Shown here: in pieces, positions 9,915-31,896 of the stretch
How the letters are laid out: each line of letters starts with the position of its first letter
Numbering within the stretch: position 1 is the stretch's first letter
Source: Candidatus Cloacimonadales bacterium
GTDB taxonomy: Bacteria; Cloacimonadota; Cloacimonadia; Cloacimonadales; JAFGVF01
Assembly: GCA_963667035.1 (NCBI GenBank)
Contig: OY762964.1
Location: 1,376,001 to 1,440,000, forward strand
DNA: 64,000 bases
Direction of reading: 5' to 3'
The notes under the pieces: model-generated
Databases searched by the model: none
Seen by the model: only the letters and a program-made list of their open reading frames with translations
What the model was told of the DNA's origin: nothing
Position numbers and translations under genes: made by a program

Positions 9915-9921
9915 GAGAATT

Positions 9922-15935: not shown

Positions 15936-17498
15936 TTGAGTAAGAATAGATTAGCTAAAAATATTAGTATAATGTCAGTTTCTGTTTTCTTAAGTAGGAT
16001 CCTTGGATTAATAAGAGATCAGGTGATGGCATATTTCTTTGGTACAACCTTTTACAATGATGCATTTAATGCTGCCTTTAACCTGCCTAATCTCCTAAGG
16101 AGACTATTTGGAGAGGGTGCATTATCTGCGGCATTTGTTCCAATCTATAATGAAATAGGTGTAAAAAAAAGTAAGAAAGAGCAATACAATTTCGCTTTAA
16201 ATGTGATGAGCTTGTTATCGGCATTCTTGTTAATACTAACAGGGTTAGGAGTACTATTAGCGCCTTATTTAATCAAGCTGTTCTTTCCTGGATTTGATGC
16301 AGGGACATCTGAGCTGACTGTAAGCTTGACCAGAATTCTGTTTCCTTATCTGTTTTGTATTGGGCTTTCCTCAACAATGATTGCAATTCTTAATTCTCAT
16401 GATAAGTTCTTCATGACAGGTTTATCATCCGGATTACTTAATATAGGATGGATGGCTTTCCTTATCATTCCTAGGCTCATGGGAATTGAATCAAATTATT
16501 TGTTGGTGCATTACGCTTCTTATGGTGTATTAGTTGGTGGAGTACTACAAATACTGATTAACATACCATTTTTAATAAAACTTGGTTATCATTTTAAGTT
16601 AAGCTTGAAGATTACCGGAGAAGCCATATCAGCTTTATGGAGAAGATTTATTCCCGGAGTAATTGGTATCGGGGTAAGACAACTGAATCTTATAGCCGAT
16701 AATCTTATGGCATCATTCCTTCAAACTGGTAGTATTACGGCTCTTATGTATGGTAACAGATTAATGCAACTTCCCCTAGGAATCTTCGGGATTGCGACAA
16801 GTACCGCCGTTTTGCCTATGTTTTCAAGGTATGTTGTTGAAGAGAAATGGAAAGAATTATCCGATAGTTTAAGATTTGCTATTTTGTCTTTAGCCAACAT
16901 CATGATTCCGATTGCTGTACTTCTTATAGGTCTGGGAGAAGACATCATAACTGTTCTTTTTAAAAGAGGTGAGTTTGATACTCAAGCGGTAAGTATGACC
17001 TATTTTGCTTTGATGTTTTACAGCATAGGACTACTTTTCTTTAGTATTAATCAAACATTGATTCCACTTTTTTATGCTAATAAAGACACAAAAACTCCTG
17101 TTATTCTTGCTTCCTTTATGGTAGTATTGAACATATCATTGAACTATGTTCTAATGCAATTCATGGGACATGGTGGTCTTGCATTATCTACAACTGTTAC
17201 AGCAATTGTAAATTGCACTATTCTATTGCTACTTATAAAAAAACGTTATAAATTTATCAAATTCTCAGGAATAGCACTAAATATAATCAAAGCTCTCGGA
17301 CTTTCAGGACTGCTATTTGTTTTAGTTAACTTTCTGACTAGTTTGTACAATCCTCAATCAATATGGTTACTTTTTGCTAAAGTAGGTGCTATTTCTATTG
17401 TTACAGTAGCTCTTTACATAACACTTGCAACTTTAATGAAAATTGATTACGCTGATTATGCGGTTAAAAGATTATGGCAAAGATTTCGGAAGAATTAA
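15936..17498 (+). CDS. murJ: lipid II flippase
   Basis: SRILGLIRD, AFNLPNLLRRLFGEGALSAAFVP, RLMQLPLGIFG; many TM helices. Confidence 0.96.
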   Translation: MSKNRLAKNISIMSVSVFLSRILGLIRDQVMAYFFGTTFYNDAFNAAFNLPNLLRRLFGEGALSAAFVPIYNEIGVKKSKKEQYNFALNVMSLLSAFLLILTGLGVLLAPYLIKLFFPGFDAGTSELTVSLTRILFPYLFCIGLSSTMIAILNSHDKFFMTGLSSGLLNIGWMAFLIIPRLMGIESNYLLVHYASYGVLVGGVLQILINIPFLIKLGYHFKLSLKITGEAISALWRRFIPGVIGIGVRQLNLIADNLMASFLQTGSITALMYGNRLMQLPLGIFGIATSTAVLPMFSRYVVEEKWKELSDSLRFAILSLANIMIPIAVLLIGLGEDIITVLFKRGEFDTQAVSMTYFALMFYSIGLLFFSINQTLIPLFYANKDTKTPVILASFMVVLNISLNYVLMQFMGHGGLALSTTVTAIVNCTILLLLIKKRYKFIKFSGIALNIIKALGLSGLLFVLVNFLTSLYNPQSIWLLFAKVGAISIVTVALYITLATLMKIDYADYAVKRLWQRFRKN

Positions 17499-19288
17499 AA
17501 ACTAAACTTCGTTTACTGCCAACAAAACCCGGGTGTTATCTTTGGAAAAACGACAAGGGTAAGATAATATATGTAGGAAAGGCAGTAAATCTTAAGAATA
17601 GGGTTATGTCCTATGTAAGCGGTAAACCTTCAGATAGTAAGACTGCCAGACTAGTATCAAAAATAGCGGATTTAGATTATATCATAACCAATACTGAAAC
17701 CGAAGCATTAGAATTAGAAGCTAATCTTATCAAACAGCATCGTCCACGCTATAACATCTTACTGAAAGATGATAAGCGTTATCCTTTCATCAAAGTTACT
17801 ACAAAAGAGCCATTCCCTAGAGTCTTTGTAACAAGAGATTATGTTAAGGACGGTAATAAATACTTCGGTCCTCACACCAATGCAGGAGCTGTTAGGAAGA
17901 CAATGCGTTTAATGGAATGGATCTTCCCAATCAGAAGATGTCAGCGACTCATTCCAGCTGATAAGATTGTATTTACCAAAGCCTGTATTAATTACCAATT
18001 AGGCACATGTACAGCACCATGTATTGGGAAAATTGGTGTTGAAGAATATAGACATATTGTTGAACAAATGATGAGATTCCTTAAAGGAAAGCATAATGCA
18101 ATAATTGATGAGCTAAAATGTGAGATGCAAGAACAAGCCGATAAAATGGAATTCGAAAAGGCCGCCTTAACAAGAGATAAGATCGAAGCACTACAAAAAG
18201 TTCAATCTAATCGTACTATGTTCTTAACAGACTTTAAAGATAGAGATATTATTGCGTTAGCTAAAGAAGAAGATATTGCGGCAGTTGTTGTAATAAAAAT
18301 GGTTGAGGGTAAAGTTCTCCATAAAGAAACCTATCCTTTAACTCAAGTAAAAGAATCAACTGAAGCCGAAATTCTGTCATTCTTCTTGCAATCATACTAT
18401 GCCCAAGTAGATGATTTACCGCATAGTATATTGCTTCAGTTAGAGCCCACAGATATGAAGATTTTGAATGATTGGCTAGGAAACAGACTTACTCTCCCTC
18501 AAAGAGGTGAAAAAGCTCAGCTTATTAATGTTGCAAAACTCAATGCTTTTAACTTCGTTGAAGAACAGAAACTCGCTCATCTTAGAAAAGCAACAAGAAC
18601 TATTATACCAATTCAGGAATTGAAAGAATTATTGGATTTACCCAAACTACCTAGGAAAATTGTTTGTATGGATATTTCTACAATTCAAGGAAGTGATACG
18701 GTTTCGTCAGCAGTATTCTTTGAGAATGGTAAACCTAAAAAGAATCTCTATCGTAAGTATATTATTAAAACTGTAGAGGGACAAGATGACTTTGCCTCTA
18801 TGGCGGAGACACTGGAGCGATTTCTCAAAGAGACAAATGAAAATGAGCCGTTGAAACCGGATTTGATTGTAATTGACGGTGGAAAAGGACAGTTAAATAA
18901 AGCCTTTAATCAGTTAAAGAAGCAATCTGACGGTTCTATAAGTATGATATCATTAGCAAAAAGAATTGAGGAAGTATTCGTTGCAGGGCATAAGACTTCA
19001 ATATTACTTCCCAGGTCTTCGGGAGCTTTGAGAGTATTAGTTGATGTAAGGGATGAAGCCCATCGGTTTGCTATTACTTTCCACAGACAAAGAAGAAGTA
19101 AACGGACGATAAAATCTGAATTAGACAATATTAAGGGTGTAGGAGAAAAAACTAAGTTTCTTCTGCTAAAAGAATTTGGTTCTGTTGATGGAATAAAACA
19201 TGCAAAAGTAGGAGAATTGACAGAGATAAAAGGTATCAGTTTAAAACTTGCTTCTGAGATAATAAAGTATTTCAAAGTTAAGAAATAA
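17474..19288 (+). CDS. uvrC: excinuclease ABC subunit C
   Basis: GIY-YIG N-terminus (PGCYL..IYVGKAVNLKNRV), UVR domain, DISTIQG, IDGGKGQL, RDEAHRFA, HhH tail. Confidence 0.97.
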   Translation: MAKISEELKTKLRLLPTKPGCYLWKNDKGKIIYVGKAVNLKNRVMSYVSGKPSDSKTARLVSKIADLDYIITNTETEALELEANLIKQHRPRYNILLKDDKRYPFIKVTTKEPFPRVFVTRDYVKDGNKYFGPHTNAGAVRKTMRLMEWIFPIRRCQRLIPADKIVFTKACINYQLGTCTAPCIGKIGVEEYRHIVEQMMRFLKGKHNAIIDELKCEMQEQADKMEFEKAALTRDKIEALQKVQSNRTMFLTDFKDRDIIALAKEEDIAAVVVIKMVEGKVLHKETYPLTQVKESTEAEILSFFLQSYYAQVDDLPHSILLQLEPTDMKILNDWLGNRLTLPQRGEKAQLINVAKLNAFNFVEEQKLAHLRKATRTIIPIQELKELLDLPKLPRKIVCMDISTIQGSDTVSSAVFFENGKPKKNLYRKYIIKTVEGQDDFASMAETLERFLKETNENEPLKPDLIVIDGGKGQLNKAFNQLKKQSDGSISMISLAKRIEEVFVAGHKTSILLPRSSGALRVLVDVRDEAHRFAITFHRQRRSKRTIKSELDNIKGVGEKTKFLLLKEFGSVDGIKHAKVGELTEIKGISLKLASEIIKYFKVKK

Positions 19289-19329: not shown

Positions 19330-19575
19330 ATGGAAACAAAGAACTTGAATAGACTCGCAATTAGTGATAATGGATTTATTTTTGATCCTTCCACAGGAAT
19401 ATCTTATAACTGTAATTTAATGGCTTTAACAATAATTAATCTTTTGAAAGCGGGATTGAGCGAAGAAGAGATTGAAACAAAAATATATTCTGAGTTTGAA
19501 GTCACTCAGGAAAACCTAAATAGAGATGTTGCTTATTTTGTTAATCAATTGAAGAACTTACATCTGGTAAAGTAA
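19330..19575 (+). CDS. stand-alone PqqD-family protein / RiPP recognition element (RRE)
   Basis: 81 aa; three short strands (GFIFDPSTGISYNCN) then helices (IINLLKAG..EEIETKIYSEFEV...RDVAYFVNQLKNLHLV); strong AGGAGG RBS. Confidence 0.85.
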   Translation: METKNLNRLAISDNGFIFDPSTGISYNCNLMALTIINLLKAGLSEEEIETKIYSEFEVTQENLNRDVAYFVNQLKNLHLVK

Positions 19576-19576
19576 T

Positions 19577-20650
19577 ATGCAAATAGATTTAAGCAATTTA
19601 GAGATAACAGTAGCAGTTACGGGATTAAGGACCGGAGATAATCCTCAACCCGGAACACCTGTTATAAGATGTCTTCGTGATGCAGGATTTAAAGGTAAGA
19701 TTGTTGCACTTGTTTATGATGCTTTAGAAGCAGGCATCTATGTTCAAGATTTAGCTGATGAAATTTATTTAATGCCGTTTCCTTCCGGTGGTTCGGAAAT
19801 ATTCCTAAAAAGATTGGACTATATACTTAGTCAGACAAGTATAGATGTTATCATCCCCACACTTGATTCAGAGATTATTAACTATATAAGACTTCAAGAT
19901 AAACTGAATGAACGTGGTATTAAATTTTACTTACCAACAGAGGAACAATTCCTTTCAAGAGATAAAACAAGACTCAACAGAGAGTTTGAAAACCTTGGAA
20001 TTAAAGTACCCAAGACTATCTTCTGTAGCGACGCAAAAGAGTTATACAATATTGTTACAACAATTACTTTTCCATTCTTTGTTAAAGGAAGACTATACGA
20101 GGCTTATGAGGTATTCACTATTGATGAAGCCTTTGATGTATTCGCAAAACTCAAAGCTAAATGGGGTCTTCCGGTTATAGTACAAGAGAAAGTCGTTGGG
20201 GATGAGTTTAATGTTTCCATAGTAGGTGATGGTGAAGGTGGTGTTCTTGGAATGATTCCACAGAGAAAGCTTATTATAACTGATAAAGGTAAAGGCTTTG
20301 GAGGAGTTGTTGTTGAGAATAAAGAGTTAACTGAGTTTACTGATAAAGTCATATCTACACTTAAATGGAGAGGCCCGGCTGAACTTGAAGTAATACAAAA
20401 CGGAGCAGGTGAGATTTTCATTATTGAGATTAATCCAAGATTTCCTGCCTGGATAAGACTATCTTCTGGTGCTGGACAAAACTTACCGGCTATATGTCTA
20501 CTCAAAGCTCTTGGAGAGAAAGTCGAACCTATCAAAGAGTATAAAAGCGGAACAATATTTATTAGGCATTCTGAAGATATAATCTCTTCAATTGATAAAT
20601 ACGGAACTATCTCCAGTTTAGGAGAATTACACTATAACAAGGATAATTAA
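19577..20650 (+). CDS. ATP-grasp domain ligase
   Basis: ADEIYLMP, IDVIIPTLDSE, DK..L, FPFFVKG, VIVQEKVVGDEF, IEINPRFPAW. Confidence 0.88.
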   Translation: MQIDLSNLEITVAVTGLRTGDNPQPGTPVIRCLRDAGFKGKIVALVYDALEAGIYVQDLADEIYLMPFPSGGSEIFLKRLDYILSQTSIDVIIPTLDSEIINYIRLQDKLNERGIKFYLPTEEQFLSRDKTRLNREFENLGIKVPKTIFCSDAKELYNIVTTITFPFFVKGRLYEAYEVFTIDEAFDVFAKLKAKWGLPVIVQEKVVGDEFNVSIVGDGEGGVLGMIPQRKLIITDKGKGFGGVVVENKELTEFTDKVISTLKWRGPAELEVIQNGAGEIFIIEINPRFPAWIRLSSGAGQNLPAICLLKALGEKVEPIKEYKSGTIFIRHSEDIISSIDKYGTISSLGELHYNKDN

Positions 20651-20651
20651 A

Positions 20652-21995
20652 ATGAAAAAAAAATATACTCCCCCATTTATAGAGAAGAATAATGTTGGCA
20701 TGACTAACAAGTTCGGTTTCTCGAGCGTTGTTAACTATATAGATAGAATTGAAAATGTCCCAGTAGCCGATATAGTAGATAAATTTGGATCTCCAGTGAT
20801 AGTATTTTCCGAAAATGCTATAAGAGAAAAATATCGAAGAATGAAAACCGAATTAGAAAAACATTATCCAAATGCAGAGATTAGTTGGTCGTATAAAACG
20901 AACTATTTACAAGCAATCTCTTCAATATTACATCAAGAAGGAGCAAAGCCAGAAGTAGTGAGTATCATGGAATATGATATGGCTAAAGGACTAGGCCAGA
21001 AAGGTGAAGATATTATTTTTAACGGTCCGGGAAAGCGTAAAAACGACTTATTAACTGCTGTTTCAGAGAAAGCCAAAATACACATTGATCACATGGACGA
21101 GTTATTTTTACTCGAAGAAGTGGCTGACGAATTAAGTATGACTCCTCAAGTAGCCATCCGAGTTAATATGGACACAAAAGTATACCCTCAATGGCAAAGA
21201 TTCGGTTTTAATTATGACAATGGAGAAGCAATGAGAGTTCTTCAAAGGATAGTATCCGGAGGAAAACTACAGATTATTGGTCTTCACTGTCACATAGGCA
21301 CTTTCATGTTAGAACCTTCAGCCTACTATTATTCTGCAAAAGCATTGTTAGATTTAGCTATGCAACTTAAGGATAAATTTGGAATTGTAATTGATTATAT
21401 AGATTTAGGTGGAGGATTTGCTTCGAGAAATACCCTTCATAACCAATATACTCCCGGTGAATTTGCTTCACCCAATCCTGATCAGTATTTTTCAGCAATA
21501 GGTAAAGCTTTTAATGAATCTCAGTTTACAAGAGAGGAGAATCCGAGATTAATTATGGAAACAGGACGAGTCTTGGTTTCTGAAGCAGGATACTGTATTG
21601 CGTCAGTACTTGGTAAAAAAGACTTACCTACAGGACAAAGAGCCGTAATTCTTGATGGTGGAGTAAACATTATGATAACAGCTTGGTGGTATAATCTGAA
21701 TATTAAACCTGCTCAACCTCTTTCAGGAACATCCAGAAATACAATTTTTTATGGTCCTTTGTGTATGAACATTGATGTTGTTAAGCCTGATTGTGTATTC
21801 CCTGATTTACAAGTTAATGATAAAGTTGTAATTCATCCTGTTGGTGCATATAATGTAACCCAATGGATGCAGTTTATTGAATATAGACCCAATGTAGTAT
21901 TGATAACAGAGACCGGTGAAATTGAACTGATTAGAGAAAGAGAATATCTCAAAGACATTCAACACAAAGAGAGAATACCGGAACACTTGAAGTAG
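20652..21995 (+). CDS. fold-type III PLP enzyme, LysA/ornithine decarboxylase family, substrate unknown
   Basis: SYKTNY (PLP Lys), FNGPGK, HCHIGT, DLGGG, ETGR, GPLCMNID, GAY; about 30-aa N-terminal extension. Confidence 0.88.
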   Translation: MKKKYTPPFIEKNNVGMTNKFGFSSVVNYIDRIENVPVADIVDKFGSPVIVFSENAIREKYRRMKTELEKHYPNAEISWSYKTNYLQAISSILHQEGAKPEVVSIMEYDMAKGLGQKGEDIIFNGPGKRKNDLLTAVSEKAKIHIDHMDELFLLEEVADELSMTPQVAIRVNMDTKVYPQWQRFGFNYDNGEAMRVLQRIVSGGKLQIIGLHCHIGTFMLEPSAYYYSAKALLDLAMQLKDKFGIVIDYIDLGGGFASRNTLHNQYTPGEFASPNPDQYFSAIGKAFNESQFTREENPRLIMETGRVLVSEAGYCIASVLGKKDLPTGQRAVILDGGVNIMITAWWYNLNIKPAQPLSGTSRNTIFYGPLCMNIDVVKPDCVFPDLQVNDKVVIHPVGAYNVTQWMQFIEYRPNVVLITETGEIELIREREYLKDIQHKERIPEHLK

Positions 21996-22003
21996 ACGTA
22001 TTT

Positions 22004-24145
22004 ATGAATAAATCAAAGTATTTATACTCCTTTATTGAGGCAGTTCTTAACTCATACTCAACAATTATGTTCAGTAATGAAAGAATAGTAGGTCTCTTAA
22101 TACTATTATCTACACTGATAGATTGGAAAACAGGCTTATCGGGTTTAGTCGGAACCGCAATAGCTTTACTATTTGCCAGAGTATTCAGGTTTGAAGGATG
22201 GGATAGTAAATCAGGTTTGTTAGGTTTCAATAGTCTACTAGTTACTTTAGGATTAGGGTATTTCTACCCTTTCAACGGATCTAATCCCTTAATATTCTCA
22301 AGTATCCTCATAATAGCATCAATACTAGCTCTTTTTACTTATATTGCGTTAAATACGATTATTGTTCGCTATTTAAATTTCCCTTCAATGAGTTTATCTT
22401 TCTCAGTAATAGCTATATTCTTAAGCTTTTTCTATCTGAGAATAGGTGGGACATTGATAGGTGAGATTAGGCCCTTGTTGATACAGACATCTATTGAACT
22501 ACCTCAATACTTTGATTTGTATTTAAAAAGCCTTGGTAGCATTTTTTTTCAACCGAATATTATAACCGGAGCAGTCATTGCATTAGCACTGTTAGTAACT
22601 TCTAGAATAGGTTTTGTTCTATCTTTAGTAGGATTTAGTCTTAGTTTTGTTTTTATGACAGTGTTCAATAGCTTCCCAACAGGTGAGATACTATTCCCCA
22701 GTTTGAACCTCATTCTTATCTCAATAGCTATAGGAGGAGTGTTCTTCATCCCTAGTTGGTACTCTTATTTGATTGCTGTTATTGCGGGTATTACCGGTAT
22801 CATTATTGCTTTCTCATTCCAGACAATGCTTTACAATTTCTTTGTTCCGCCTTTTGCATTTCCTTATTGCATTACAGTATTCATCTACGTATATGCAATG
22901 CGATTAAGGTTAGTAAACAAAAATCCCTATAGTATTGATTACGGTTCTTTCCATCCTGAAGGAAACTTAGAGTACTATTACTCAAGAATAGAAAGATTTT
23001 ATGAAACAGGAACTTCCCAGTTTGCTCTTCCATTTAGTGGCGAATGGACTATTACACAGGGGAATGAAGGTGAGTTTACTCATAAAGACTTATGGAAACA
23101 TGCTTGGGATTTTGAGATTTATGATAAAGAAGGTAGCAGTTATAGAAATGAGGGAGTAAATGTTACTGATTATTACTGCTATGGGAAACCCGTGTTTGCA
23201 TCTGCTCCCGGGTATGTAACTAAAGTTCTTGATGGTATTTTGGATAATCCGGTAGGACAAATCAATACTATAGATAACTGGGGAAACTATGTTATCGTTC
23301 ATCATTGGGGTAGTATCTATTCAATGTATGCCCATTTAAAGCCAGGAACTATAAATCTCAAACAAGGTGATACAATTAGCAAAGGGACTAAGCTTGGATC
23401 TGTTGGTAACTCGGGACGTTCTGCTGTTCCCCATTTGCATTTTAACATACAATTAGGTCCGGAGCCCGGCTCATCCACATTGAAATCCTATCTTGTTAAT
23501 TACAAAACAACAATAGATAACACTAACTTCAAGTTTATTCCATATGGTATTCCATTGAAAGATGATAGGATCTCTCCCCTAATTCCTGATTCTTCATTGC
23601 AAGATATTTTGAATCTTAAAGTCACTGATAAATCTTCATTCAAAGTGAGAACAGTTAAAGGTGTTAAACAAGAAACTTGGGAAGTCAATGTAGATTTACT
23701 AGGAAACCTAAGTATTATTAGTGATAAATCCTATATCTATTTTTCTGTTTATGAAGGAATCTACAATTGTTTTAGTTACTATGGCAAGAGAAACATCGGA
23801 TTACACACCTTTGCACTTATCTTATCAAGACTACCATATTTAAAAAGTAAAGCAATTGAATGGACTGATAAACCTCCTCTTTCTATTTTCTATAATCCGT
23901 TTATAGAAAAAACAGTTCTCTTCATCAAAGCTTTCTTACCAAATTTCATAACGACAGAAGCCCAATATAAAGCAGTTGACAATAACAACATCATAAAAAT
24001 AGATTCATTTATTACCATAAAGATTGTAAATAGAATCTTTAAAAGCTACCATGGCAAGTTAGAGGTTGATGTAAGTAAGGGGATTACATACATGAGCTTG
24101 GAGGATAGCAAAAAATTTCTTGTAGAGGTTGAAAGAATAGAATAA
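22004..24145 (+). CDS. urea-transporter-like membrane domain fused to an M23 metallopeptidase domain
   Basis: About 10 TM helices with GLLGFNSLL; then HAWDF, GNYVIVHH...YAHL, VGNSGRSAVPHLHF. Confidence 0.85.
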   Translation: MNKSKYLYSFIEAVLNSYSTIMFSNERIVGLLILLSTLIDWKTGLSGLVGTAIALLFARVFRFEGWDSKSGLLGFNSLLVTLGLGYFYPFNGSNPLIFSSILIIASILALFTYIALNTIIVRYLNFPSMSLSFSVIAIFLSFFYLRIGGTLIGEIRPLLIQTSIELPQYFDLYLKSLGSIFFQPNIITGAVIALALLVTSRIGFVLSLVGFSLSFVFMTVFNSFPTGEILFPSLNLILISIAIGGVFFIPSWYSYLIAVIAGITGIIIAFSFQTMLYNFFVPPFAFPYCITVFIYVYAMRLRLVNKNPYSIDYGSFHPEGNLEYYYSRIERFYETGTSQFALPFSGEWTITQGNEGEFTHKDLWKHAWDFEIYDKEGSSYRNEGVNVTDYYCYGKPVFASAPGYVTKVLDGILDNPVGQINTIDNWGNYVIVHHWGSIYSMYAHLKPGTINLKQGDTISKGTKLGSVGNSGRSAVPHLHFNIQLGPEPGSSTLKSYLVNYKTTIDNTNFKFIPYGIPLKDDRISPLIPDSSLQDILNLKVTDKSSFKVRTVKGVKQETWEVNVDLLGNLSIISDKSYIYFSVYEGIYNCFSYYGKRNIGLHTFALILSRLPYLKSKAIEWTDKPPLSIFYNPFIEKTVLFIKAFLPNFITTEAQYKAVDNNNIIKIDSFITIKIVNRIFKSYHGKLEVDVSKGITYMSLEDSKKFLVEVERIE

Positions 24146-25542
24146 TGCTTTTTAATTCTTTAGAGTTTGCTCTATTTTTACCAATAGTTCTAATCCTGTT
24201 TCATTTGATTCCAGCAAAGGGAAGATGGGGTTTGTTACTAGGAGCAAGTTTCTTATTTTATAGTTTTTGGAGACCTGAATATCTACTACTGATAGTAACA
24301 TCAATAGTAGTAGATTATATTGCAGGTATCAGAATTGAGAAAAGCAAATCTCAAAGAATTAAAAAAACATTTCTTATCATAAGTTTAATAACTAATCTAG
24401 GACTACTGCTATTCTTTAAATATTTTAATTTCCTTGCTAACAGCATTGTAAATCTAATACCAACTATGCAATTCGAAACTAATCACAGATTCCTCAATGT
24501 GCTTCTTCCGGTTGGAATTTCTTTTTATACTTTCCAGACAATGGGCTACACAATAGATGTTTATAAAGGGAAATTAAAAGCAGAAAAACACATAGGCTAT
24601 TTTGCTCTTTATGTCTCATTCTTTCCACAACTTGTAGCTGGTCCTATTGAGAGAGCTGATCATCTTTTACCTCAGTTTAAAAAAAAGAAGCCAATAACTA
24701 ATGATGATTTGTTAATAGGATTTTCAAGAATAGTATTAGGCTTTTTTAAGAAAGTAGTAATTGCAGACAGATTAGCTTTATTCTCTGACGAGGTGTTTAA
24801 TCATGCTACTTCTTATTCAGGAATACCACTAATTATTGGAGTAGTTTTTTTTACATTTCAAATCTATTGCGATTTCAGTGGATACACTGATATCGCTTTA
24901 GGTATAGCTAGAATAATGGGAATCAGATTGCTTGAGAACTTTAAAACTCCTTATCTTTCAAGAAACATTAATGAATTCTGGAAGCGTTGGCATATATCTC
25001 TCTCCGGATGGTTCAGAGACTACTTATACATTCCTCTAGGGGGGAATAGAATTTCAATACCCCGTAAGTATTTAAACTTGATTATTGTATTTGTCCTTAG
25101 CGGATTTTGGCATGGAGCAAATTGGACATTTATGATTTGGGGATTTGTACATGGTGTTCTACTTATTGGATGGAATATTCTTAAACCTCTAAATCTTAGA
25201 ATTCCAAAAGCAATTAGCATTTTTCTCACATTCATAGTTGTTAGTATTGCTTGGATTTTCTTCAGGGCATCATCACTTTCTGATTCATTACACATCATAG
25301 GCAGTATCATCTCCCCTGTTCATTGGGGTGGATTTTTACCCGGGTTAACGATGACAGAATTAATTTTAAGTGCATTTTTCATTACCTTAATGAGCATAAT
25401 ACATTCAAGGTTAGGAGCAGATATGCAGAAGATGCTAAATCAATCACCATTAAAAAGAGTTCTTGTATTGAGCTCGCTAGTAGTTTTGATATTCAGTTTC
25501 GGAATATTTAACGAAAACCAGTTTATCTATTTCCAATTCTAA
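24145..25542 (+). CDS. MBOAT O-acyltransferase, AlgI/DltB-like
   Basis: LPVGISFYTFQ, FPQLVAGPIER, DFSGYTDIA, FWKRWHISLSGWFRDYLYIPLGG, GFWHGANW. Confidence 0.93.
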   Translation: MLFNSLEFALFLPIVLILFHLIPAKGRWGLLLGASFLFYSFWRPEYLLLIVTSIVVDYIAGIRIEKSKSQRIKKTFLIISLITNLGLLLFFKYFNFLANSIVNLIPTMQFETNHRFLNVLLPVGISFYTFQTMGYTIDVYKGKLKAEKHIGYFALYVSFFPQLVAGPIERADHLLPQFKKKKPITNDDLLIGFSRIVLGFFKKVVIADRLALFSDEVFNHATSYSGIPLIIGVVFFTFQIYCDFSGYTDIALGIARIMGIRLLENFKTPYLSRNINEFWKRWHISLSGWFRDYLYIPLGGNRISIPRKYLNLIIVFVLSGFWHGANWTFMIWGFVHGVLLIGWNILKPLNLRIPKAISIFLTFIVVSIAWIFFRASSLSDSLHIIGSIISPVHWGGFLPGLTMTELILSAFFITLMSIIHSRLGADMQKMLNQSPLKRVLVLSSLVVLIFSFGIFNENQFIYFQF

Positions 25543-25543
25543 C

Positions 25544-26491
25544 ATGAAAGCAATTATTAAATATATTATACTCTTTATGTCGGTTACAGTTATCCTAGTA
25601 GCAATACTAGCCGTTATAAACAGATTCATTTTCTTACCCGTAATCTATAATCCGAAGTATTTTTCTTTAAATGAGAAAACATTCATAATGGGTGATTCCC
25701 ATACTCAGTGTGCTATTAATCCTAAGTATATTGATGATTCAGTAAATCTATCAAAAAATAGTGAGAATTACTTTCTAACTTACGTTAAATTGTCATATTT
25801 CCTCAAGTACAACAAACCTAATCGTTTAATACTAAATTTCTCATATCATAACTTCTCAACCTTATACGACAAAGAGATGTTTGGAGTTAGGCGTAATGTT
25901 CTCCTAAACAGATATTATCCAATTATTAATGATAAAAGCAACTTTTTTACTTCCAAGAAAGATGGTGACTGGCTATACACAAAACTTAAATATGATTGGG
26001 GTTTGCCATTTGATTTTTCGAATAACATGCACTTGTTTTTCTATTTGAAGCATTTTGATAAACCTGATATTGCCAACTATCCCTTCGGAGGTTACTATAG
26101 ATACAATGATACTTGTAATCTATCAAACGATACAATCAAGCATTCTCTAAAGGCACATTATAACAACAATGGAGAACGAGCCGGTGTTTCTAAACTGATG
26201 TATGATTATGTCAAAAGAATTTGCGAGGTTTGCAAAGAGAATGATATTGAGATTATTTTAGTGAACACTCCAGTACATACTGATTATTATAAAAAAATCC
26301 CTGAAGCCTTTAAAGAAAATCACATTATAGTATATAATTACTTGAAAGAAGAATATAGTGCTAAATATTTTGATTTCTCAACGTTTCCAATTCCTGATAA
26401 AGGATATGGAGATGGTGATCATCTGAATGCTTATGGAGCAACCATATTCTCAAAAGAACTTAAGAAAACTTTAGACTCATTGGAGGAATAG
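25544..26491 (+). CDS. membrane-anchored SGNH-like partner of the MBOAT (AlgJ/DltD-like)
   Basis: N-terminal TM helix, MGDSH (GDS) and DGDHLN (DxxH) motifs; directly follows the MBOAT. Confidence 0.78.
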   Translation: MKAIIKYIILFMSVTVILVAILAVINRFIFLPVIYNPKYFSLNEKTFIMGDSHTQCAINPKYIDDSVNLSKNSENYFLTYVKLSYFLKYNKPNRLILNFSYHNFSTLYDKEMFGVRRNVLLNRYYPIINDKSNFFTSKKDGDWLYTKLKYDWGLPFDFSNNMHLFFYLKHFDKPDIANYPFGGYYRYNDTCNLSNDTIKHSLKAHYNNNGERAGVSKLMYDYVKRICEVCKENDIEIILVNTPVHTDYYKKIPEAFKENHIIVYNYLKEEYSAKYFDFSTFPIPDKGYGDGDHLNAYGATIFSKELKKTLDSLEE

Positions 26492-27097
26492 ATGCGTAAA
26501 TACTTTCTTATTGTAATCATATTTATGTTTTTTACCAGTCTCATAGCAGATACTGACAGTCCAATAACCAGATCATATAATTATGAAAATAATTATCAAT
26601 ACACTGCAGCAATTGAAGCTATGAGCTTTCTTATTAGTAATGAACCTGATAATGCTTTCTATAATACAAGACTTGGATGGTTAAATTACCTAAATACCGA
26701 CTACACTGCTGCAAAGAACTACTATGAGAAAGCTTATAAGAAAGAAAAGAATACTGAAGCTCTGGAAGGTCTAAATCTAGTATCTTACTATTCCGGAGAC
26801 TGGGATAACGTAATTTACTACTCTGATGAGATTCTTAAGAAGTACCCTCATAACTTTGTTGCTTTAACCTATAAAGCATACGCATTTTTCATGAAGTCCG
26901 ATTGGATAAAAGCAGCAAAGATTTACAATCTTATTCTAGCAAGATATCCTTATCATATAGATAGCAGATGTTATCTTCTTGCCTGTTATACATATTCATC
27001 CGATATCCTTAAAGCGAAAACACAATACGAATTCGTTAAGAAATATGCTCCTACAAGTAAATATCTAATTGAGTATGAAGCTACTGTTAAAAAATAG
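26492..27097 (+). CDS. secreted TPR protein
   Basis: Signal peptide; TPR-like RLGWLNY...YTAAKNYYEKA repeats. Confidence 0.8.
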   Translation: MRKYFLIVIIFMFFTSLIADTDSPITRSYNYENNYQYTAAIEAMSFLISNEPDNAFYNTRLGWLNYLNTDYTAAKNYYEKAYKKEKNTEALEGLNLVSYYSGDWDNVIYYSDEILKKYPHNFVALTYKAYAFFMKSDWIKAAKIYNLILARYPYHIDSRCYLLACYTYSSDILKAKTQYEFVKKYAPTSKYLIEYEATVKK

Positions 27098-28289
27098 TAT
27101 ACTTGTTCTATTATTCCTAATTCCATTTCAACTATTCGGTGTCTCTTCTATTGAAGAAGCATACAGGTTTCTTTCTAACAGGCAATATGTTTCAGCAAAG
27201 AATGCTTATTTAGAGCTGATTAAAGCTGACAGTTGCTATGCTGATGCATATATAGGAGCAATAGAATCATCTTTAGGATTGAAACAAATCAAAGAAGCAG
27301 AGTCTCTTGCAAAGCAAGCTCAACCTGATTGTAATCCTAATCATATCTTTTCTCGCTATCTAGGTTACATATACTATCTTAAAAAGGACTATTATAGAAG
27401 TATCTATTATTATAAGATAGCCATCTGGGGTTCTATGGATAGGTCAATTGAACTCACAGGACTTGGAAAGAGTTATAGTGAATTACATTACTTGGATAAA
27501 GCTGAGAACTATCTTCTTAATGCTCTAAAGGTTAATAAGGATAATCTTTACGCTCAGAATGCTCTAAATCAAATTAAGCATTTACCATTGTATACTGAGA
27601 TTTATTCAGGAATCAATAGCTCTAACAAAGAAGAGAAGACTTACTTCGGTTCATTGTTTATAAATAGCTACAAGAGTCTATTAAATCTCAGATTTAATCA
27701 TTTTGAATCTAACAATACTAATAGAGATAGCTATGCTCTAGGTTATAAATACCTTACATCAGGTTGGAAAACAGGAATAGATTTAGCTTATATGTCAGGA
27801 GATTACAAGCTCCTTTACGATACTTACGGAACTTCTCTCATGTTTGAGAAAGAATTTATTAATCAATACGGTTACAATAGACTTGGTTACTCCTTTTCTT
27901 ATTGCTACTATGATATACTTTCATCAATACAGAATACTGCTTGGTATGAGACAAAGATAAACAGAGCCAATCTTTTATTGGAGTTAACAAGTAGTATAAG
28001 AGACTATGAAGTTAAGGATTTAGACAATGATTACTGGTTGTTATACACGGAATTAAATTACAGACTCCCTTATAACTTTACTTCAGGTCTATTCCTCTTT
28101 TATGGAGATAAAGAGTTCTATGTTTCTCCCAAAGGCTATGTAATTGATAACTACAGAGAACCAAACTTATCTTATGGATTTAACCTCATGTATGAGTTAC
28201 CCAAAATTTCCATAGCAGGAAATTATACAATTAATGATGATAAAACATACTCGTCCAGTCTTACACTGGGATATAAAACAAAGTTCTGA
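27075..28289 (+). CDS. TPR plus C-terminal beta-barrel outer membrane protein
   Basis: Signal peptide, N-terminal TPRs, aromatic alternating strands, ends LGYKTKF. Confidence 0.7.
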   Translation: MKLLLKNSILVLLFLIPFQLFGVSSIEEAYRFLSNRQYVSAKNAYLELIKADSCYADAYIGAIESSLGLKQIKEAESLAKQAQPDCNPNHIFSRYLGYIYYLKKDYYRSIYYYKIAIWGSMDRSIELTGLGKSYSELHYLDKAENYLLNALKVNKDNLYAQNALNQIKHLPLYTEIYSGINSSNKEEKTYFGSLFINSYKSLLNLRFNHFESNNTNRDSYALGYKYLTSGWKTGIDLAYMSGDYKLLYDTYGTSLMFEKEFINQYGYNRLGYSFSYCYYDILSSIQNTAWYETKINRANLLLELTSSIRDYEVKDLDNDYWLLYTELNYRLPYNFTSGLFLFYGDKEFYVSPKGYVIDNYREPNLSYGFNLMYELPKISIAGNYTINDDKTYSSSLTLGYKTKF

Positions 28290-28299
28290 TGGAGTGCTT

Positions 28300-31200
28300 T
28301 TGCAGACATTAAAACGTTTCTTCCTTTTGTTTCTTGCCCTTATAACATTGAACGCTTGCTTTAGAGAGAATAATGACTATCCGGTCGGTGTCGATCCATT
28401 CTCAATTACTGAGAGTGATATCCCCGGTTATTATATTGGAACAGAAATATCTGAGACAATGAATTACTATGTTCCATCTCAGAATAGTGATGCTTACCTA
28501 TTACTTGAACAAGAAACCATTACAGATTCTTTATTGCATAGAGGTGATTTTCTCTGGTTTGGAGAAATTGAAAGCTTTACATTAAGAGACTCCATTTACA
28601 TTTCTGCTGAATATGACCAAGCTACTCCTACATTCTTTTTGGGAGTATACAGAGATTCATTGTTAGTTAACTTTTCTGCAACTTTCCCGACAAATAGCAT
28701 CAGAGCATTTATACCAGCTGAAAAAGACAATTCAAATATAAAACTAGTAACATGGGGAGATGAATTTCTTACTGATTACGCATACAACAATCAATCAGGT
28801 TCTTCCAATCTATTTACCATTAATCTAACTCCCGGACAAGAGTTTGCTTTCTACTCACTTAACGGTTCATCTAGTAACTACACTATTAGTTATTCGAATA
28901 GTAATATGCACATACTTACAAAAGACTTCTACGGTTTTATGCCGTCCGGACTAGGTATGACAGGTAATGTAAGTATAAATTCATCTATCGATAGCAACAC
29001 TCTAGCAGCAATCAATGGTGTCTATAATAATTTGCTTGTTAGTAATACCTCAATATCAGTCAATTTTAACACTGTACTCAATGATAATGATTACATTGTT
29101 ATATGTTATAAACAACTCCCGGAACATACACCGGAGAATATGCTACTATATGAACATGACACCTTCTCTCAGTTTGATAATAGTAGTAATTATTGGTCAA
29201 TCGATTCTGATAACTTACAAATCTTTCCGAACAAGACAGGAGATTATATCTTGGTAGAAAACATTCCTGATGTTAATGAGTATAAGATTACTTTGGACGG
29301 CTCATTTTCAACATTATGTCTAGGTGATTTCTACTGTAATCTCAAAACTGCATCACTTAACAATACTTATCTCACTATCAATCTACAAGCAAGCATTGAC
29401 CAATGGGATACTTATTACGGATCCAATAGTTATGGCTTAATGGTTCCTGATAACATTTACGGTTTCACCTTTACAGATTTCGATGGAACAAGTGTTACTC
29501 TTACCGATGATGAATACATAGAAGTAGGATTTCCCTCTGCAAAAGCAAACAGAATGCTATTCTATCACAAAGACGATGGTCAATCACTAACAATCGGCTA
29601 TCTTACTGAAGATATCAGTTACGATGAAAGACACTATACCGAGATAGATGGCTATCTTTATTTCGGAGTTAACTCTTCATGTAATTATTTCTTTTCAGAT
29701 TATGAACCGTCTATAACTAATAAATCTATTCCTTTGCCTTACAATAAGGTATATTATAATTTCGGAAGTTTCACTTTAAATATTGATACCTACTCCAATC
29801 CTATATCTTCCATTAACATTAGTTTTAATACTCCTATCCCCTATGTAGATACAATATTTTCAGGATATCCTTACAAACTAAATACAACTCCATTCAGTTT
29901 CAATGTAGATTTCTTTTCGGATGAGCAAGAGATTCAACAACTGGATGATGATGAATACATTGAGATAGGCATTCATAATGATTACTTACCTCCCTCATAT
30001 TCACATCTCTTCACCATAGACAACAGTGCTTCAGAGTTCAGAGCTTCTTACAAGACTATGGGAGATGAATATGATGAAGAGCACTTCTCTATTCAAAATG
30101 ATTATACTTATTTTGGACTAGCCTCTAGCTCAGACTATTTGTTCTCAGAAGCTAACACTGATTTGGATACTTACTTCTTCGAACTACCCACAAAAGCAAT
30201 ATTGCTTGAAGCGGATGATTTCTTCATATCAAGCGAGAGTGTTACATCAGCAAACAAACTTGTAGTAAATACGCAAGTTAATACCGATTTTATTCATAAC
30301 TACTTTGACTCTAATCCCTTCTCAATAGAAACTCCTGAGTTCATCTATGAGTTTAGTTTTCTCCTAGATAATAATCCTGTTAGTGAGCTAAGGGAAGGTG
30401 AATCCGTTGTCATCACAAAACCGGCTTCTGTTCCAAATGGACAAAGTGTAGTAATTGATTATGCAGAATCAGCTAGTGCTGTAAGTATTATTTCAAACTC
30501 GGAATACACGGTTGATAGTAGATATACTTATGAGAACGACAATATCTCTATGCTCGTGTATAGAACAGGCAAAAAGTGTTATACTTCTTTAAATCCATTA
30601 TCTTCCGACTTTACTATTCCATTACTCAAGCAGCACACAGAGATAATCAGTCTGGACTTATCAATTGTCACGGATTTAACTCCTAGTCTTTTAAATAGCT
30701 ATCCTGACGGTCTTATTGTTAATGCATCAATTCAAAGTGATTTACCTGAAGAAGCCATTGATATTTTCAACCAATACGATAACTTAGTTGTTTCATCTGT
30801 ATATCATTTCGGATTAAGTGATACTAACAATACGGAGCTCAATTCATTGCTTGAAACAATCAATCCAGCAATTGAAATTAATATAGAGTCCACGCCAAGT
30901 TTTCTGTGTTACTTCTCTCCCGAGAATAGAAACAGACTTTACACATATCCATTAGGAGAAGTAATTGATGGATATAATTTTACTGTTTCAAACAATAAAG
31001 CACTCTTCCTCATTCATGACCCGGGGTACTATGTCGCTATAAGAGAGAATACACCAATGCTAATGAATGATTATAATATTACAGACGTTTCCTCTCCGAT
31101 AAATGTTTCATTTTATCAAACTCAATTCATGCTTCCCGCTTATTTCGTACCATTTTATTTTGAAGTGGGAGATAGAGTTGTTTTAAGAACTGAGTCCGTT

Positions 31201-31506
31201 ATTCCCGGCTATAACCCAATTACAAGTGTAAGATTAGATTTCATTGATAATAGTAATCAAGCAATAAACACTGCTTTCATCTATGAACATGCTTACGAAG
31301 AAAGCCCTATTCTGTATCTATCTTTTCCACCTTCCTATACTAATTCCAATTTAAGACTATTTTTTAGAGATATAAACGGAAATGTAACCGAGTATACAAG
31401 GGTAAATGAGTTTAGTGAAGACATGTTCTACTTGGAGTTTATAGCTCACTCCAATTGTGCAATCGTAGTAGTTAATAGTCCGGGATCTTTCTTTATAACT
31501 AACTAG
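28300..31506 (+). CDS. large acidic lipoprotein with internal repeats of about 147 aa
   Basis: Probable TTG start after GGAG; lipobox LNAC; DDEYIE(V/I)G recurs at 29506 and 29947. Confidence 0.7.
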   Translation: MQTLKRFFLLFLALITLNACFRENNDYPVGVDPFSITESDIPGYYIGTEISETMNYYVPSQNSDAYLLLEQETITDSLLHRGDFLWFGEIESFTLRDSIYISAEYDQATPTFFLGVYRDSLLVNFSATFPTNSIRAFIPAEKDNSNIKLVTWGDEFLTDYAYNNQSGSSNLFTINLTPGQEFAFYSLNGSSSNYTISYSNSNMHILTKDFYGFMPSGLGMTGNVSINSSIDSNTLAAINGVYNNLLVSNTSISVNFNTVLNDNDYIVICYKQLPEHTPENMLLYEHDTFSQFDNSSNYWSIDSDNLQIFPNKTGDYILVENIPDVNEYKITLDGSFSTLCLGDFYCNLKTASLNNTYLTINLQASIDQWDTYYGSNSYGLMVPDNIYGFTFTDFDGTSVTLTDDEYIEVGFPSAKANRMLFYHKDDGQSLTIGYLTEDISYDERHYTEIDGYLYFGVNSSCNYFFSDYEPSITNKSIPLPYNKVYYNFGSFTLNIDTYSNPISSINISFNTPIPYVDTIFSGYPYKLNTTPFSFNVDFFSDEQEIQQLDDDEYIEIGIHNDYLPPSYSHLFTIDNSASEFRASYKTMGDEYDEEHFSIQNDYTYFGLASSSDYLFSEANTDLDTYFFELPTKAILLEADDFFISSESVTSANKLVVNTQVNTDFIHNYFDSNPFSIETPEFIYEFSFLLDNNPVSELREGESVVITKPASVPNGQSVVIDYAESASAVSIISNSEYTVDSRYTYENDNISMLVYRTGKKCYTSLNPLSSDFTIPLLKQHTEIISLDLSIVTDLTPSLLNSYPDGLIVNASIQSDLPEEAIDIFNQYDNLVVSSVYHFGLSDTNNTELNSLLETINPAIEINIESTPSFLCYFSPENRNRLYTYPLGEVIDGYNFTVSNNKALFLIHDPGYYVAIRENTPMLMNDYNITDVSSPINVSFYQTQFMLPAYFVPFYFEVGDRVVLRTESVIPGYNPITSVRLDFIDNSNQAINTAFIYEHAYEESPILYLSFPPSYTNSNLRLFFRDINGNVTEYTRVNEFSEDMFYLEFIAHSNCAIVVVNSPGSFFITN

Positions 31507-31875: not shown

Positions 31876-31896
31876 AAGCCTGCTTCAAGCAGGCTT
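31876..31896 (-). terminator. terminator downstream of tRNA-Asn
   Basis: AAGCCTGC-TTCAA-GCAGGCTT hairpin with T-rich run on the minus strand. Confidence 0.75.

Follow-up and report, generated by a model that had tools for sequence, protein, structure and literature searches.

What might a bacterial operon produce when it combines a RiPP recognition element (RRE; RiPP, ribosomally synthesised and post-translationally modified peptide) with an ATP-grasp enzyme, an amino acid decarboxylase, a urea-channel-like membrane protein and an outer-membrane barrel, and has no space for a peptide open reading frame (ORF) in any of its junctions? The question is raised by positions 19330-28289 (+ strand) of a 64,000-nucleotide stretch, called the window here, of the single-contig, 3.10 Mb genome of a Candidatus Cloacimonadales bacterium (contig OY762964.1). 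Six of the eight genes in this block form a conserved cassette: those for the PqqD protein, the ATP-grasp enzyme, the decarboxylase, a urea transporter (UT)/M23 peptidase fusion, the TPR protein TPR201 and the TPR-barrel protein TPR406. The remaining two encode an MBOAT acyltransferase and its partner, p315. In the preferred reading, to which a probability of roughly 45% is attached, the cassette consists of two sub-modules, with the acyltransferase pair as a lineage-specific insert, and it would ligate first and then decarboxylate the conjugate; the product would be freed by the M23 peptidase beside the pore and secreted by way of the TPR proteins and the barrel. That product is probably a small amine or amide, made in the cell and passed out via the urea-channel-like pore.

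The ORF list and junction read-out place all eight genes on the + strand. From PqqD to TPR406 the junctions measure +1, +1, +8, −1, +1, 0 and −29 nt, so that the initial annotation was right to describe tight coupling (gaps of −29 to +8 nt) and no precursor room. The final overlap, of TPR406 with TPR201, is 29 nt from a TTG start and 23 nt from the ATG at 27075. The family assignments made at that time have likewise held, through Pfam, motifs or high-confidence models. The genes and their domains are as follows.

19330..19575, + strand: PqqD-type RRE protein, 81 amino acids (Pfam PqqD, 2.8e-08)
19577..20650, + strand: ATP-grasp enzyme, carbamoyl-phosphate-synthase-like branch, 357 amino acids (Pfam ATPgrasp_Ter, ATP-grasp_3)
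20652..21995, + strand: alanine-racemase-fold decarboxylase dependent on pyridoxal phosphate (PLP), FigC/BtrK/DAPDC clade, 447 amino acids (Pfam Orn_Arg_deC_N, 4.2e-34, and Orn_DAP_Arg_deC)
20652..20717, + strand: leader-like N-terminal tail of the decarboxylase, residues 1-22 (YxxPxI, then K20-F-G22)
22004-24145, + strand: UT/M23 fusion, 713 amino acids (Pfam UT, 1.9e-48, and Peptidase_M23, 5.4e-16)
22004..22903, + strand: urea-transporter-fold channel domain, fusion residues 1-300 (Pfam UT)
23012..23503, + strand: M23 metallopeptidase domain, fusion residues ~337-500 (Pfam M23), predicted to be cytoplasmic
23552..24145, + strand: beta-rich, family-specific C-terminal domain, fusion residues ~517-713 (model pLDDT >90)
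24145..25542, + strand: MBOAT membrane acyltransferase, 465 amino acids (Pfam MBOAT, 1.1e-30)
25544..26491, + strand: p315, membrane-anchored SGNH-like MBOAT partner, 315 amino acids (GDSH and DGDH motifs)
26492..27097, + strand: TPR201, periplasmic TPR protein with a signal peptide and no lipobox (Pfam TPR families)
27069..28289, + strand: TPR406, modelled as an outer-membrane protein with signal peptide, TPR-like helices and a 14-strand beta-barrel, 406 amino acids

A search with the UT/M23 protein, using one genome per species, yielded 76 loci, and all ORFs in these loci were clustered into families. The carriers are Cloacimonadota, many Bacteroidales and Cytophagales (both Bacteroidota), Balneolaceae, Chlorobiota-labelled metagenome-assembled genomes (MAGs) and one Alphaproteobacteria-labelled MAG; cultured members of these two orders include Algoriphagus, Cyclobacterium, Fontibacter, Shivajiella, Rhodonellum and Mariniradius, with Algoriphagus marinus, Fontibacter flavus, Mariniradius saccharolyticus and Rhodonellum psychrophilum among the species. 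Besides UT/M23 itself (76/76), the loci contain the decarboxylase (63/76), a 453-residue family termed F2 (61/76), the ATP-grasp enzyme (57/76), TPR201 (54/76) and PqqD (48/76). These counts are lower bounds, because many contigs end within the operon and longer antisense ORFs displaced some PqqD ORFs. F2 is the homologue of TPR406 (hhalign 98.4%, E 8.1e-15, 320 columns) and thus the TPR-barrel of the other carriers. Conserved synteny, on which the initial annotation had made its proposal depend, is therefore present, with the cassette genes kept at 48-63 of the 76 loci, far above chance. Averaged over alignment columns, identity across phyla is 74% in the decarboxylase and 65% in the ATP-grasp ligase.

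The cassette divides into two parts. In eight loci, UT/M23, F2 and TPR201 occur without the enzyme trio beside them, and in all five genomes of this split type that were tested PqqD, the ATP-grasp enzyme and the decarboxylase are grouped elsewhere in the genome. Two trios, one cytoplasmic and one belonging to the envelope, thus make up the system and occur together. In Cloacimonadota the two TPR genes stand in the opposite order to that of other carriers. A sample of 201 genomes from the window's phylum has UT/M23 in 81 (66 of the 151 of high quality; 23 of 61 genera), and the cassette is accessory there rather than housekeeping. Its left border is always PqqD, and the genes further upstream vary among Cloacimonadota genera.

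The acyltransferase pair has a different distribution. MBOAT follows UT/M23 only in the loci numbered L116, L120, L121 and L166 and in L001-L003, three named Cloacimonadota loci that may overlap the same-genus genomes counted in the phylum search. That search returned 30 loci, and in these MBOAT lies behind UT/M23 in the window's own genome and two same-genus genomes only; it is absent from the other 27 of 27 Cloacimonadota loci, 25 of which have TPR201 directly after UT/M23. Correspondingly, among 18 fetched 17-kb regions the pair occurs in the same-genus one and is missing from 17, and it is found at none of 73 non-Cloacimonadota loci. Outside the cassette, a single-sequence locus search with p315 recovered one close relative only, and an alignment query of the p315 family was used to collect a set of 37 loci from many phyla. 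MBOAT adjoins p315 in 28 of the 37, and no PqqD, ATP-grasp, decarboxylase or UT/M23 gene was found within 9 kb of any of them. Some of these stand-alone loci lie in polysaccharide clusters (Wzz/kinase, Wzx-type flippase, GT2, DegT), others among unrelated genes. In the window's order the p315 family is patchy (14/61 genomes): the orthologue, at 373-379 bits, occurs only in three own-genus genomes, and sister genera have weaker paralogues elsewhere in the genome, beside MBOAT in 6/7 loci. Being part of the cassette only in the window's genus and one further MAG, and found alone elsewhere, MBOAT and p315 are therefore a self-contained, mobile two-gene acyltransferase module that recently entered this operon in the window's genus. 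The initial annotation had combined all eight genes into one pathway with periplasmic acylation of the product. This distribution does not support a single pathway, and the acylation step can hold at most in this one genus, other cassettes being without the MBOAT pair.

The MBOAT protein carries the histidine motif RWHISL...PLGG; it matches NCBIfam DltB below cut-off (1.6e-45), and its nearest solved relative is DltB (PDB 6bug, 1e-30). The p315 protein has no match in Pfam or NCBIfam scans. In all 14 members of its family, GDSH (S52) and D290-G-D-H293 are invariant and correspond to SGNH blocks I and V, and an N-terminal hydrophobic segment is present in p315 (KD19 hydropathy 2.96). Precomputed labels of its relatives are PF27429 for 10/13 and PF07611/DUF1574 for 1/13, and a WOR-3 homologue matches DUF1574 below cut-off (2.9e-05). 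Against solved structures, nothing significant was returned: the best single-sequence value was 0.085, to an unrelated protein, and the profile gave 0.34 and 0.54, not significant, to a 159-residue 'Acetyltransferase' (6vjp, 6wn9).

If no peptide gene accompanies the RRE protein, what could it bind? The PqqD protein scores 34.4 bits against a Pfam cut-off of 23.4, is the sole PqqD-family gene of its genome (one match), and has its best NCBIfam matches, both under the cut-offs, to lasso-peptide PqqD (B1) chaperones (1.1e-07 and 2.3e-05). Among small ORFs lying up to 500 nt upstream of PqqD, no family is common to more than 5 of 81 PqqD-bearing sources, some of them contigs fetched twice, in agreement with the proposal that a conventional precursor is lacking. 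The N-terminal strand region of PqqD is conserved and its C-terminus is variable. A LysW-type carrier function, with the product built on a conserved acidic C-terminal residue of PqqD, was considered and rejected on account of this variable C-terminus; the Cloacimonadota proteins have no acidic tail.

A candidate ligand lies within the cassette. The decarboxylase begins with a 22-residue tail of consensus M-K-x-x-[YF]-x-x-P-x-[ILV]...K-[FY]-G, with K2, P8, K20 and G22 invariant; alignments to solved homologues do not begin before profile position 22-40 and so leave the tail unmatched. The motif [YF]xxPx[ILVMF] occurs within the first 30 residues of all 48 decarboxylase sequences, and YxxP is described, in the available part of the source, as the characterised recognition motif of lasso-peptide RREs (PMC12710340). 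Complex prediction for PqqD and decarboxylase residues 1-50, both supplied as alignments, gave a score of 0.58 against 0.27 for the best of three controls, a verdict of weak support, with at least 96% contact agreement between runs and a partner pLDDT of at least 51. The pass mark is reached by 116 of 157 solved complexes and by 2 of 215 mismatched pairs, and passes at or below 0.60 comprise only 18 of the 157 solved complexes plus both mismatches; own alignments were used here, which makes these benchmark counts only rough. The pass may also reflect likeness, because solved RRE-leader complexes exist. That PqqD docks on this tail is a plausible prediction.

The catalytic domain of the decarboxylase bears on the order of reactions. 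Its profile finds FigC as the best solved match (7kh2, 3.3e-80, 273 bits), ahead of DAP (diaminopimelate) decarboxylases at 199 bits and BtrK at 140 bits (7ru7, 2j66; 4.2e-40, 7.4e-40). In NCBIfam it matches FslC (2.5e-67) and lysA (5.5e-63), both under cut-off. Residues K82, H214, G253-255, E303, R306 and C371, the PLP and catalytic residues of the alanine racemase fold, are invariant in 48/48 decarboxylases; the roles of such residues are described for FigC in the available text of PMC7857480. The same text places FigC, SbnH, AcsE, MccE and BtrK, which act on conjugated amino acids, in a clade with DAPDC, and reports that FigC-type enzymes accept N-delta-substituted ornithine (PMC7857480). 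Since FigC is the best match and the clade includes enzymes acting on conjugates, it is argued that ligation precedes decarboxylation, probably the reverse of the make-amine-then-ligate order first proposed. No NIS synthetase was found in the locus by Pfam scan. A second LysA-like gene is present in the same genome (G000:C1:374546-375595, locus L173; a 391-residue frame, 167 bits), also under the lysA cut-off.

The ATP-grasp enzyme matches NCBIfam PRK12767, 'CPS-like' (CPS, carbamoyl phosphate synthase), below cut-off (9e-31). Its profile reaches the CPS large chain in the PDB (4e-15, 58.6 bits over ~200 residues) and a structural-genomics protein, 2pn1 (9.8e-13), with further matches to acetyl-CoA, biotin and pyruvate carboxylases, urea amidolyase, PurK and PurD.

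The UT/M23 fusion is modelled with a pLDDT of 91 and a pTM of 0.85. In a VIA-align structure comparison that covered residues 2-513, residues 1-330 superpose on UT-A, UT-B and dvUT with Z of 36-37 and a root-mean-square deviation (rmsd) of 2.3-2.8 Å over 304-314 residues. The UT-domain profile spans all of dvUT (2.6e-39), and both LPxxTxPF-type motifs align, with Ser replacing Thr. By model and profile, the fold of the domain is genuinely that of a UT, and its family keeps both pore signature motifs. The M23 domain (~337-500) resembles EnpA, Csd1/2, LytM and lysostaphin (Z 13-15), and its solved relatives are all peptidoglycan peptidases or their regulators. Residues H360, D369, H444, H477 and H479 are invariant in 49/49 fusion sequences; H360 and D369 form an H-x8-D variant in place of the canonical HxxxD, and H366, with HxxD spacing, is present in 37/49. 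The available text of PMC12998343 gives the N- and C-termini of UT-B as intracellular. In the fusion, Lys and Arg residues flank both ends of the UT domain, and no hydrophobic segment was found after residue 300 (KD19 maximum 1.04). With UT termini intracellular and no later hydrophobic segment, the M23 and C-terminal domains therefore most likely face the cytoplasm, which speaks against a periplasmic peptidoglycan hydrolase. A phmmer search of 1.84 billion representatives with the C-terminal domain returned 47 proteins at E<=0.001, and the full-length ones (~690-740 amino acids) carry it at the same place. The combination of UT and M23 has been named as a bacterial domain arrangement, and the available part of that source gives no operon context or function for it (PMC12998343).

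The last two gene products point outwards. The TPR406 model (pLDDT 93.7) has one signal helix, nine helices of TPR-like type and fourteen strands, in line with the TPR/beta-barrel assignment of the initial annotation; Foldseek places BcsC at the top (1.4e-11), with OmpG (TMt 0.65-0.70) also matched and PelBC at rank 11. PqqD, the ATP-grasp enzyme and the decarboxylase have no hydrophobic segments. The envelope-spanning layout proposed for the locus thus stands, with three soluble proteins, a channel in the inner membrane, a TPR protein bearing a signal peptide and a TPR-barrel in the outer membrane. The downstream border has shifted. The cassette had been placed between uvrC and a lipoprotein gene: uvrC does end 41 nt upstream, and the lipoprotein, whose gene starts from GTG 28294, 4 nt after TPR406, has relatives downstream of the cassette in 14/18 fetched Cloacimonadota loci and is therefore probably a member of the unit, a seventh, Cloacimonadota-specific one, rather than its border. 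No family was found for this 1090-residue protein in Pfam, NCBIfam or PADLOC. In a sister genus (L149:10583-12675, and L150-L154) it is replaced by a 307-residue protein, which matches only the C-terminal 190 residues of the lipoprotein, and a 390-residue Por_Secre_tail (type IX secretion) protein.

It is proposed from these parts that the ATP-grasp enzyme would link an amino acid, its alpha-amino-acid head left free, with a carboxyl (or carboxy/carbamoyl) group, and that the FigC-like decarboxylase would then strip the alpha-carboxylate from the conjugate. PqqD, without a separate precursor, would dock on the decarboxylase's own YxxPxI...KFG tail, either holding the enzymes together or presenting the invariant tail lysine as an anchor. 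At the cytoplasmic face of the UT-fold pore, the M23 domain might cut an amide bond and so free the product, which would cross the inner membrane through the pore and leave via the TPR protein and the 14-strand barrel. In the window's genus only, the MBOAT/SGNH pair would acylate an extracytoplasmic acceptor that is possibly, not necessarily, the cassette's product.

Several observations weigh against this scheme. The system is known here from genes and models alone, with product, substrate and transcript unobserved. In its profile, the ATP-grasp enzyme comes closest to proteins that carboxylate or activate carbamate (CPS, biotin carboxylases, urea amidolyase, PurK), and at E<=0.001 it misses Ddl, RimK, LysX and amino acid ligases in the PDB, so that amide ligation is a tentative assignment. 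The decarboxylase scores 227.5 bits against an FslC (NF041039) cut-off of 500, and 212.9 (also 212.6) bits against a lysA (TIGR01048) cut-off of 297.9. A weak pass in complex prediction is more often wrong than right unless the pairing was likely beforehand, and fusions of PqqD to the ligase or decarboxylase were not found among 8000 longer candidates, although the evidential value of this is weak. The window's own second UT motif is FAFPY, with Ala where the family has Ser, and the narrow UT pore may not admit molecules bigger than a small planar amide. M23 enzymes normally work outside the cytoplasm, and the cytoplasmic topology, though most likely, comes from homology and hydropathy. The tight coupling of MBOAT and p315 to their neighbours (overlap of 1 nt, gaps of 1 and 0 nt) could be a functional link in this genus.

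A bolder version of the scheme makes the decarboxylase both enzyme and template. PqqD would grip the tail; the ATP-grasp enzyme would ligate an acidic amino acid by its side chain to the tail lysine; the decarboxylase would trim the head to a new primary amine; and repetition of the cycle would yield a linear, side-chain-free polyamide, its planar amide units threaded in single file through the UT pore. The chain would be cut from its anchor by a Gly-Gly-type M23 peptidase, exported through the BcsC-like barrel and, in this genus, capped or acylated in the periplasm by MBOAT/SGNH. This is a long shot, the least probable of the readings considered here. If true, no RRE would have been seen at work beyond RiPPs before, nor a protein-primed polyamide synthase of this kind, and the UT fold would have gained a new use.

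Other explanations share much of the same evidence. The eight genes could, as first proposed, be one integral pathway for a surface polymer or envelope modification that is acylated in the periplasm by MBOAT/SGNH and then exported, with acylation as an essential step in this genus at least. Modifying enzymes occupy just such a position in synthase-dependent exopolysaccharide operons (AlgI/J/F/X with AlgK/E; WssH/I with BcsC), and the insert falls precisely where the inner-membrane gene would otherwise adjoin the TPR genes (1-nt overlap, gaps of 1 and 0 nt). The barrel's best fold matches, BcsC and PelBC, point the same way, as do the other membrane enzymes that recur by the cassette (AT3/HGSNAT-like at 6 loci, ArnT-like PMT_2 at 4). 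Yet the pair is missing from 27/27 other Cloacimonadota, 17/18 fetched and 73/73 non-Cloacimonadota loci, stands alone or in polysaccharide clusters at 37 loci with no cassette gene within 9 kb, and has paralogues elsewhere in the genomes of sister genera; the cassette, moreover, has no glycosyltransferase or polymerase. Such a pathway is decidedly unlikely. A true RiPP with a distal precursor, which is unlikely in its turn, would have PqqD bind the leader, the ATP-grasp enzyme modify the peptide, M23, joined to the exporter, act as a double-glycine-type leader peptidase and the TPR-barrel take the peptide out. C39 peptidases fused to ABC exporters are known, and M23 enzymes prefer Gly-Gly-like bonds. 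An RRE fold above the Pfam cut-off and a peptidase at the inner face of a membrane protein fit this view, and the precursor could lie apart in the genome, since the sub-modules can. What counts against it is that no small ORF is conserved upstream of PqqD in the 81 sources, with no room for one in the window; that a peptide bearing side chains is much too wide for the UT-fold pore; that PLP decarboxylases with this fold act only where the alpha-amino acid is free; and that the decarboxylase tail motif offers a ligand without any precursor.

Two further explanations start from single components. Polyamine-linked peptidoglycan is known in Negativicutes, and M23 with the ligase and decarboxylase might edit stem peptides, for example by placing a diamine on a stem-peptide carboxylate. 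The relatives of the M23 domain are in keeping with such remodelling of peptidoglycan precursors or the envelope, as are murJ two genes upstream in the window, PBP2 and RodA directly upstream in 5 loci and a MOP-family flippase inserted in L024. The neighbours vary, however, with PqqD always at the left border and different upstream genes in different Cloacimonadota genera; the cassette is accessory (81/201 phylum genomes), its M23 domain is predicted to be cytoplasmic, and it has no Mur-ligase-like or transpeptidase gene, all of which makes this explanation highly doubtful. In a carbamoyl or ureido route, the ATP-grasp enzyme would activate bicarbonate or carbamate and N-carboxylate or carbamoylate an amino acid, and decarboxylation would give a urea-like amine of the N-carbamoylputrescine type, conducted by the UT channel. 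The enzyme's nearest solved relatives (CPS, carboxylases, urea amidolyase, PurK) and a channel of genuine UT fold, whose family keeps both signature motifs, favour this route, and the available text of PMC7857480 has FigC-type enzymes taking N-delta-substituted ornithine. The likeness to CPS (58.6 bits, ~200 residues) may, however, reflect a shared ATP-binding core only, ATPgrasp_Ter and ATP-grasp_3 are ligase-type Pfam families, and the route leaves PqqD, M23 and the TPR-barrel exporter without a role; it is quite improbable. An anti-phage defence function was dropped, as none of the nine proteins (the eight and the lipoprotein) matches a known or candidate defence protein in PADLOC (0 families at E<=0.001).

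The immediate surroundings of the cassette in the window are given by two further features.

17474-19288, + strand: uvrC (Pfam UvrC domains), ending 41 nt before PqqD
28294..31506, + strand: large lipoprotein, 1090 amino acids, lipobox LITLNAC, without a known family

Upstream, murJ (from 15936; Pfam MurJ, 1.7e-118) overlaps uvrC by 25 nt, and both are co-oriented with the cassette. The order murJ-uvrC-PqqD recurs in L001, L003 and L166; sister genera have different genes 5′ of PqqD. The + strand run comprises 11 genes, from murJ (15936) to the 1090-residue ORF (end 31506), after which − strand genes follow. A strong hairpin at 31876-31896, with a GC-rich 9-bp stem and T runs on both sides, lies between 31506 and a convergent gene ending at 32219 and is likely a bidirectional terminator; that hairpin apart, a promoter and terminator scan gave counts equal to those of shuffled sequences (79 vs 81.1; 7 vs 7.7). 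The stretch is AT-rich (G+C ~0.30-0.37), and the nearest relatives of the operon, at 77-90% amino acid identity, are MAGs labelled Cloacimonadales or Cloacimonadota.

At other loci, accessory genes adjoin the cassette. Between the decarboxylase and UT/M23 there is an IF-2B/MtnA-like gene in 7 loci, a DUF302 gene in 5, a histidine kinase with the MOP-family flippase in L024 and an aminotransferase gene in L067. Upstream, an AraC-type regulator occurs in 8 loci, an AT3/HGSNAT-like membrane acyltransferase in 6, PBP2 and RodA directly adjacent in 5, an ArnT-like PMT_2 protein in 4, and an RND pump in an uncounted number; downstream lie a ZIP transporter (7 loci) and, uncounted, cytochrome c and a DUF5777 barrel. 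Each is present in a minority of loci, and together they point loosely to the envelope. The IF-2B protein, of 277 residues (methylthioribose-1-phosphate isomerase/ribose-1,5-bisphosphate isomerase family, 1.3e-24; L018, L019, L035, L040, L059 at 9159-9989, L072 and L074), may be a clue to the chemistry. The AT3/HGSNAT-like gene lies beside PqqD in L014 (5697-6857, − strand), L035, L045, L046 and L061 and downstream in L058; it is a second kind of trans-membrane acyltransferase tied to the cassette, in parallel to the MBOAT insert.

Some copies of the cassette are interrupted. In L155:2111-5032 (genome G019), the ATP-grasp enzyme is split into residues 1-57 and 50-351 by a 480-residue Mutator/MULE-type transposase ORF (L155:2670-4109), and the cassette there is therefore probably inactivated by an insertion sequence element. 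In an incomplete Cloacimonadota genome (G188:C33:9338-11488), the UT/M23 match falls into three pieces with internal stops (2 TAG, 1 TAA, 1 TGA) and is likely a pseudogene. In a distant Cloacimonadota lineage (L165:2503-6612), N6_N4_Mtase and D12 class methyltransferases, a 368-residue gene without a family and a type IX secretion-tail gene lie at the decarboxylase/UT-M23 junction, which therefore tolerates insertions. In a control output there were hints of PqqD, and of a UT match below threshold, in Bacteroides thetaiotaomicron.

The initial annotation knew of no characterised pathway with this gene set, and no description of the operon emerged from literature searches, which did not extend to subscription journals or to ~1.7 million further PMC articles. 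Features brought out by the present analysis are the genus-level MBOAT/SGNH insert, the reversed TPR order in Cloacimonadota, the conserved downstream lipoprotein, the H-x8-D variant of M23 and the position of the ATP-grasp enzyme nearest to carboxylating enzymes. The cassette joins parts with no known joint working: a precursor-less RRE, a CPS-like ATP-grasp enzyme, a tailed decarboxylase of the conjugate type, an inside M23 domain on a UT fold and a TPR-barrel. Discovery of the product would reveal a new secreted metabolite or polymer of bacteria abundant in anaerobic digesters and sediments, test the reading of enzyme tails by RRE domains, give a first function to a bacterial UT-fusion protein and correct the annotations 'urea transporter', 'diaminopimelate decarboxylase' and 'carbamoyl phosphate synthase-like'. 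The acyltransferase insert in one genus is a natural experiment on the fate of the product outside the cytoplasm.

Known systems resemble the cassette in parts. Its export end recalls BcsC, PelB/PelC, PgaA and AlgK/AlgE, in which periplasmic TPR helices are fused to an outer-membrane barrel or accompanied by a separate TPR protein. TPR406, in contrast, has 14 strands and is most OmpG-like, with low TM-scores to BcsC and PelBC (0.26-0.42), and the cassette has no c-di-GMP receptor gene; no glycosyltransferase synthase or other glycosyltransferase family was found in its proteins by Pfam or NCBIfam. The insert parallels AlgI/AlgJ-X, PatA/PatB and DltB/DltD in its make-up: its MBOAT is coupled to a membrane-anchored protein with GDSH and DxxH blocks, and the two genes travel together. 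It differs in that p315 has a family to itself (PF27429, going by precomputed labels) and that no DltA/DltC or AlgF/AlgX is present. The channel domain shares its fold with the UT/SLC14 channels dvUT, UT-A and UT-B (~2.4 Å over ~310 residues, with pore motifs aligned); unlike these, it is fused to M23 and a family-specific domain, and the motif Thr is Ser in the family.

The RRE protein is closest to the lasso B1 proteins, which are its best NCBIfam matches, and its presumed ligand carries [YF]xxPx[ILVMF] in 48/48 sequences. The cassette has no precursor gene, and the motif lies on an enzyme's own N-terminus; neither a B2 transglutaminase-like protease nor an Asn-synthetase-like cyclase was matched among the nine proteins in Pfam or NCBIfam. 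Butirosin biosynthesis offers a similar trio in BtrI, BtrJ and BtrK, a small protein, an ATP-grasp ligase and an alanine-racemase-fold decarboxylase acting on a tethered glutamate. BtrJ is the ATP-grasp ligase of the butirosin side chain. The BtrK reaction is set out in the available text of PMC7857480. BtrI is a phosphopantetheinyl carrier, whereas the cassette's small protein has the PqqD fold, with no PP-binding match in Pfam or NCBIfam and no conserved C-terminal or Ser attachment site in its family. The cassette also has no BtrH/BtrG-type transfer or deprotection gene, and its match to BtrK is weaker than that to FigC. A parallel to the proposed chemistry is the FigA/FigC (FslA/FslC) rhizoferrin route of Francisella, together with SbnH and AcsE, in which, according to the available text of PMC7857480, amide or ester ligation is followed by PLP-dependent decarboxylation of the conjugate on an alanine racemase fold. 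There the ligase is an NIS synthetase rather than an ATP-grasp enzyme, and the route has no RRE, UT/M23 fusion or TPR-barrel, all of which the cassette combines with a decarboxylase that carries an added, leader-like tail.

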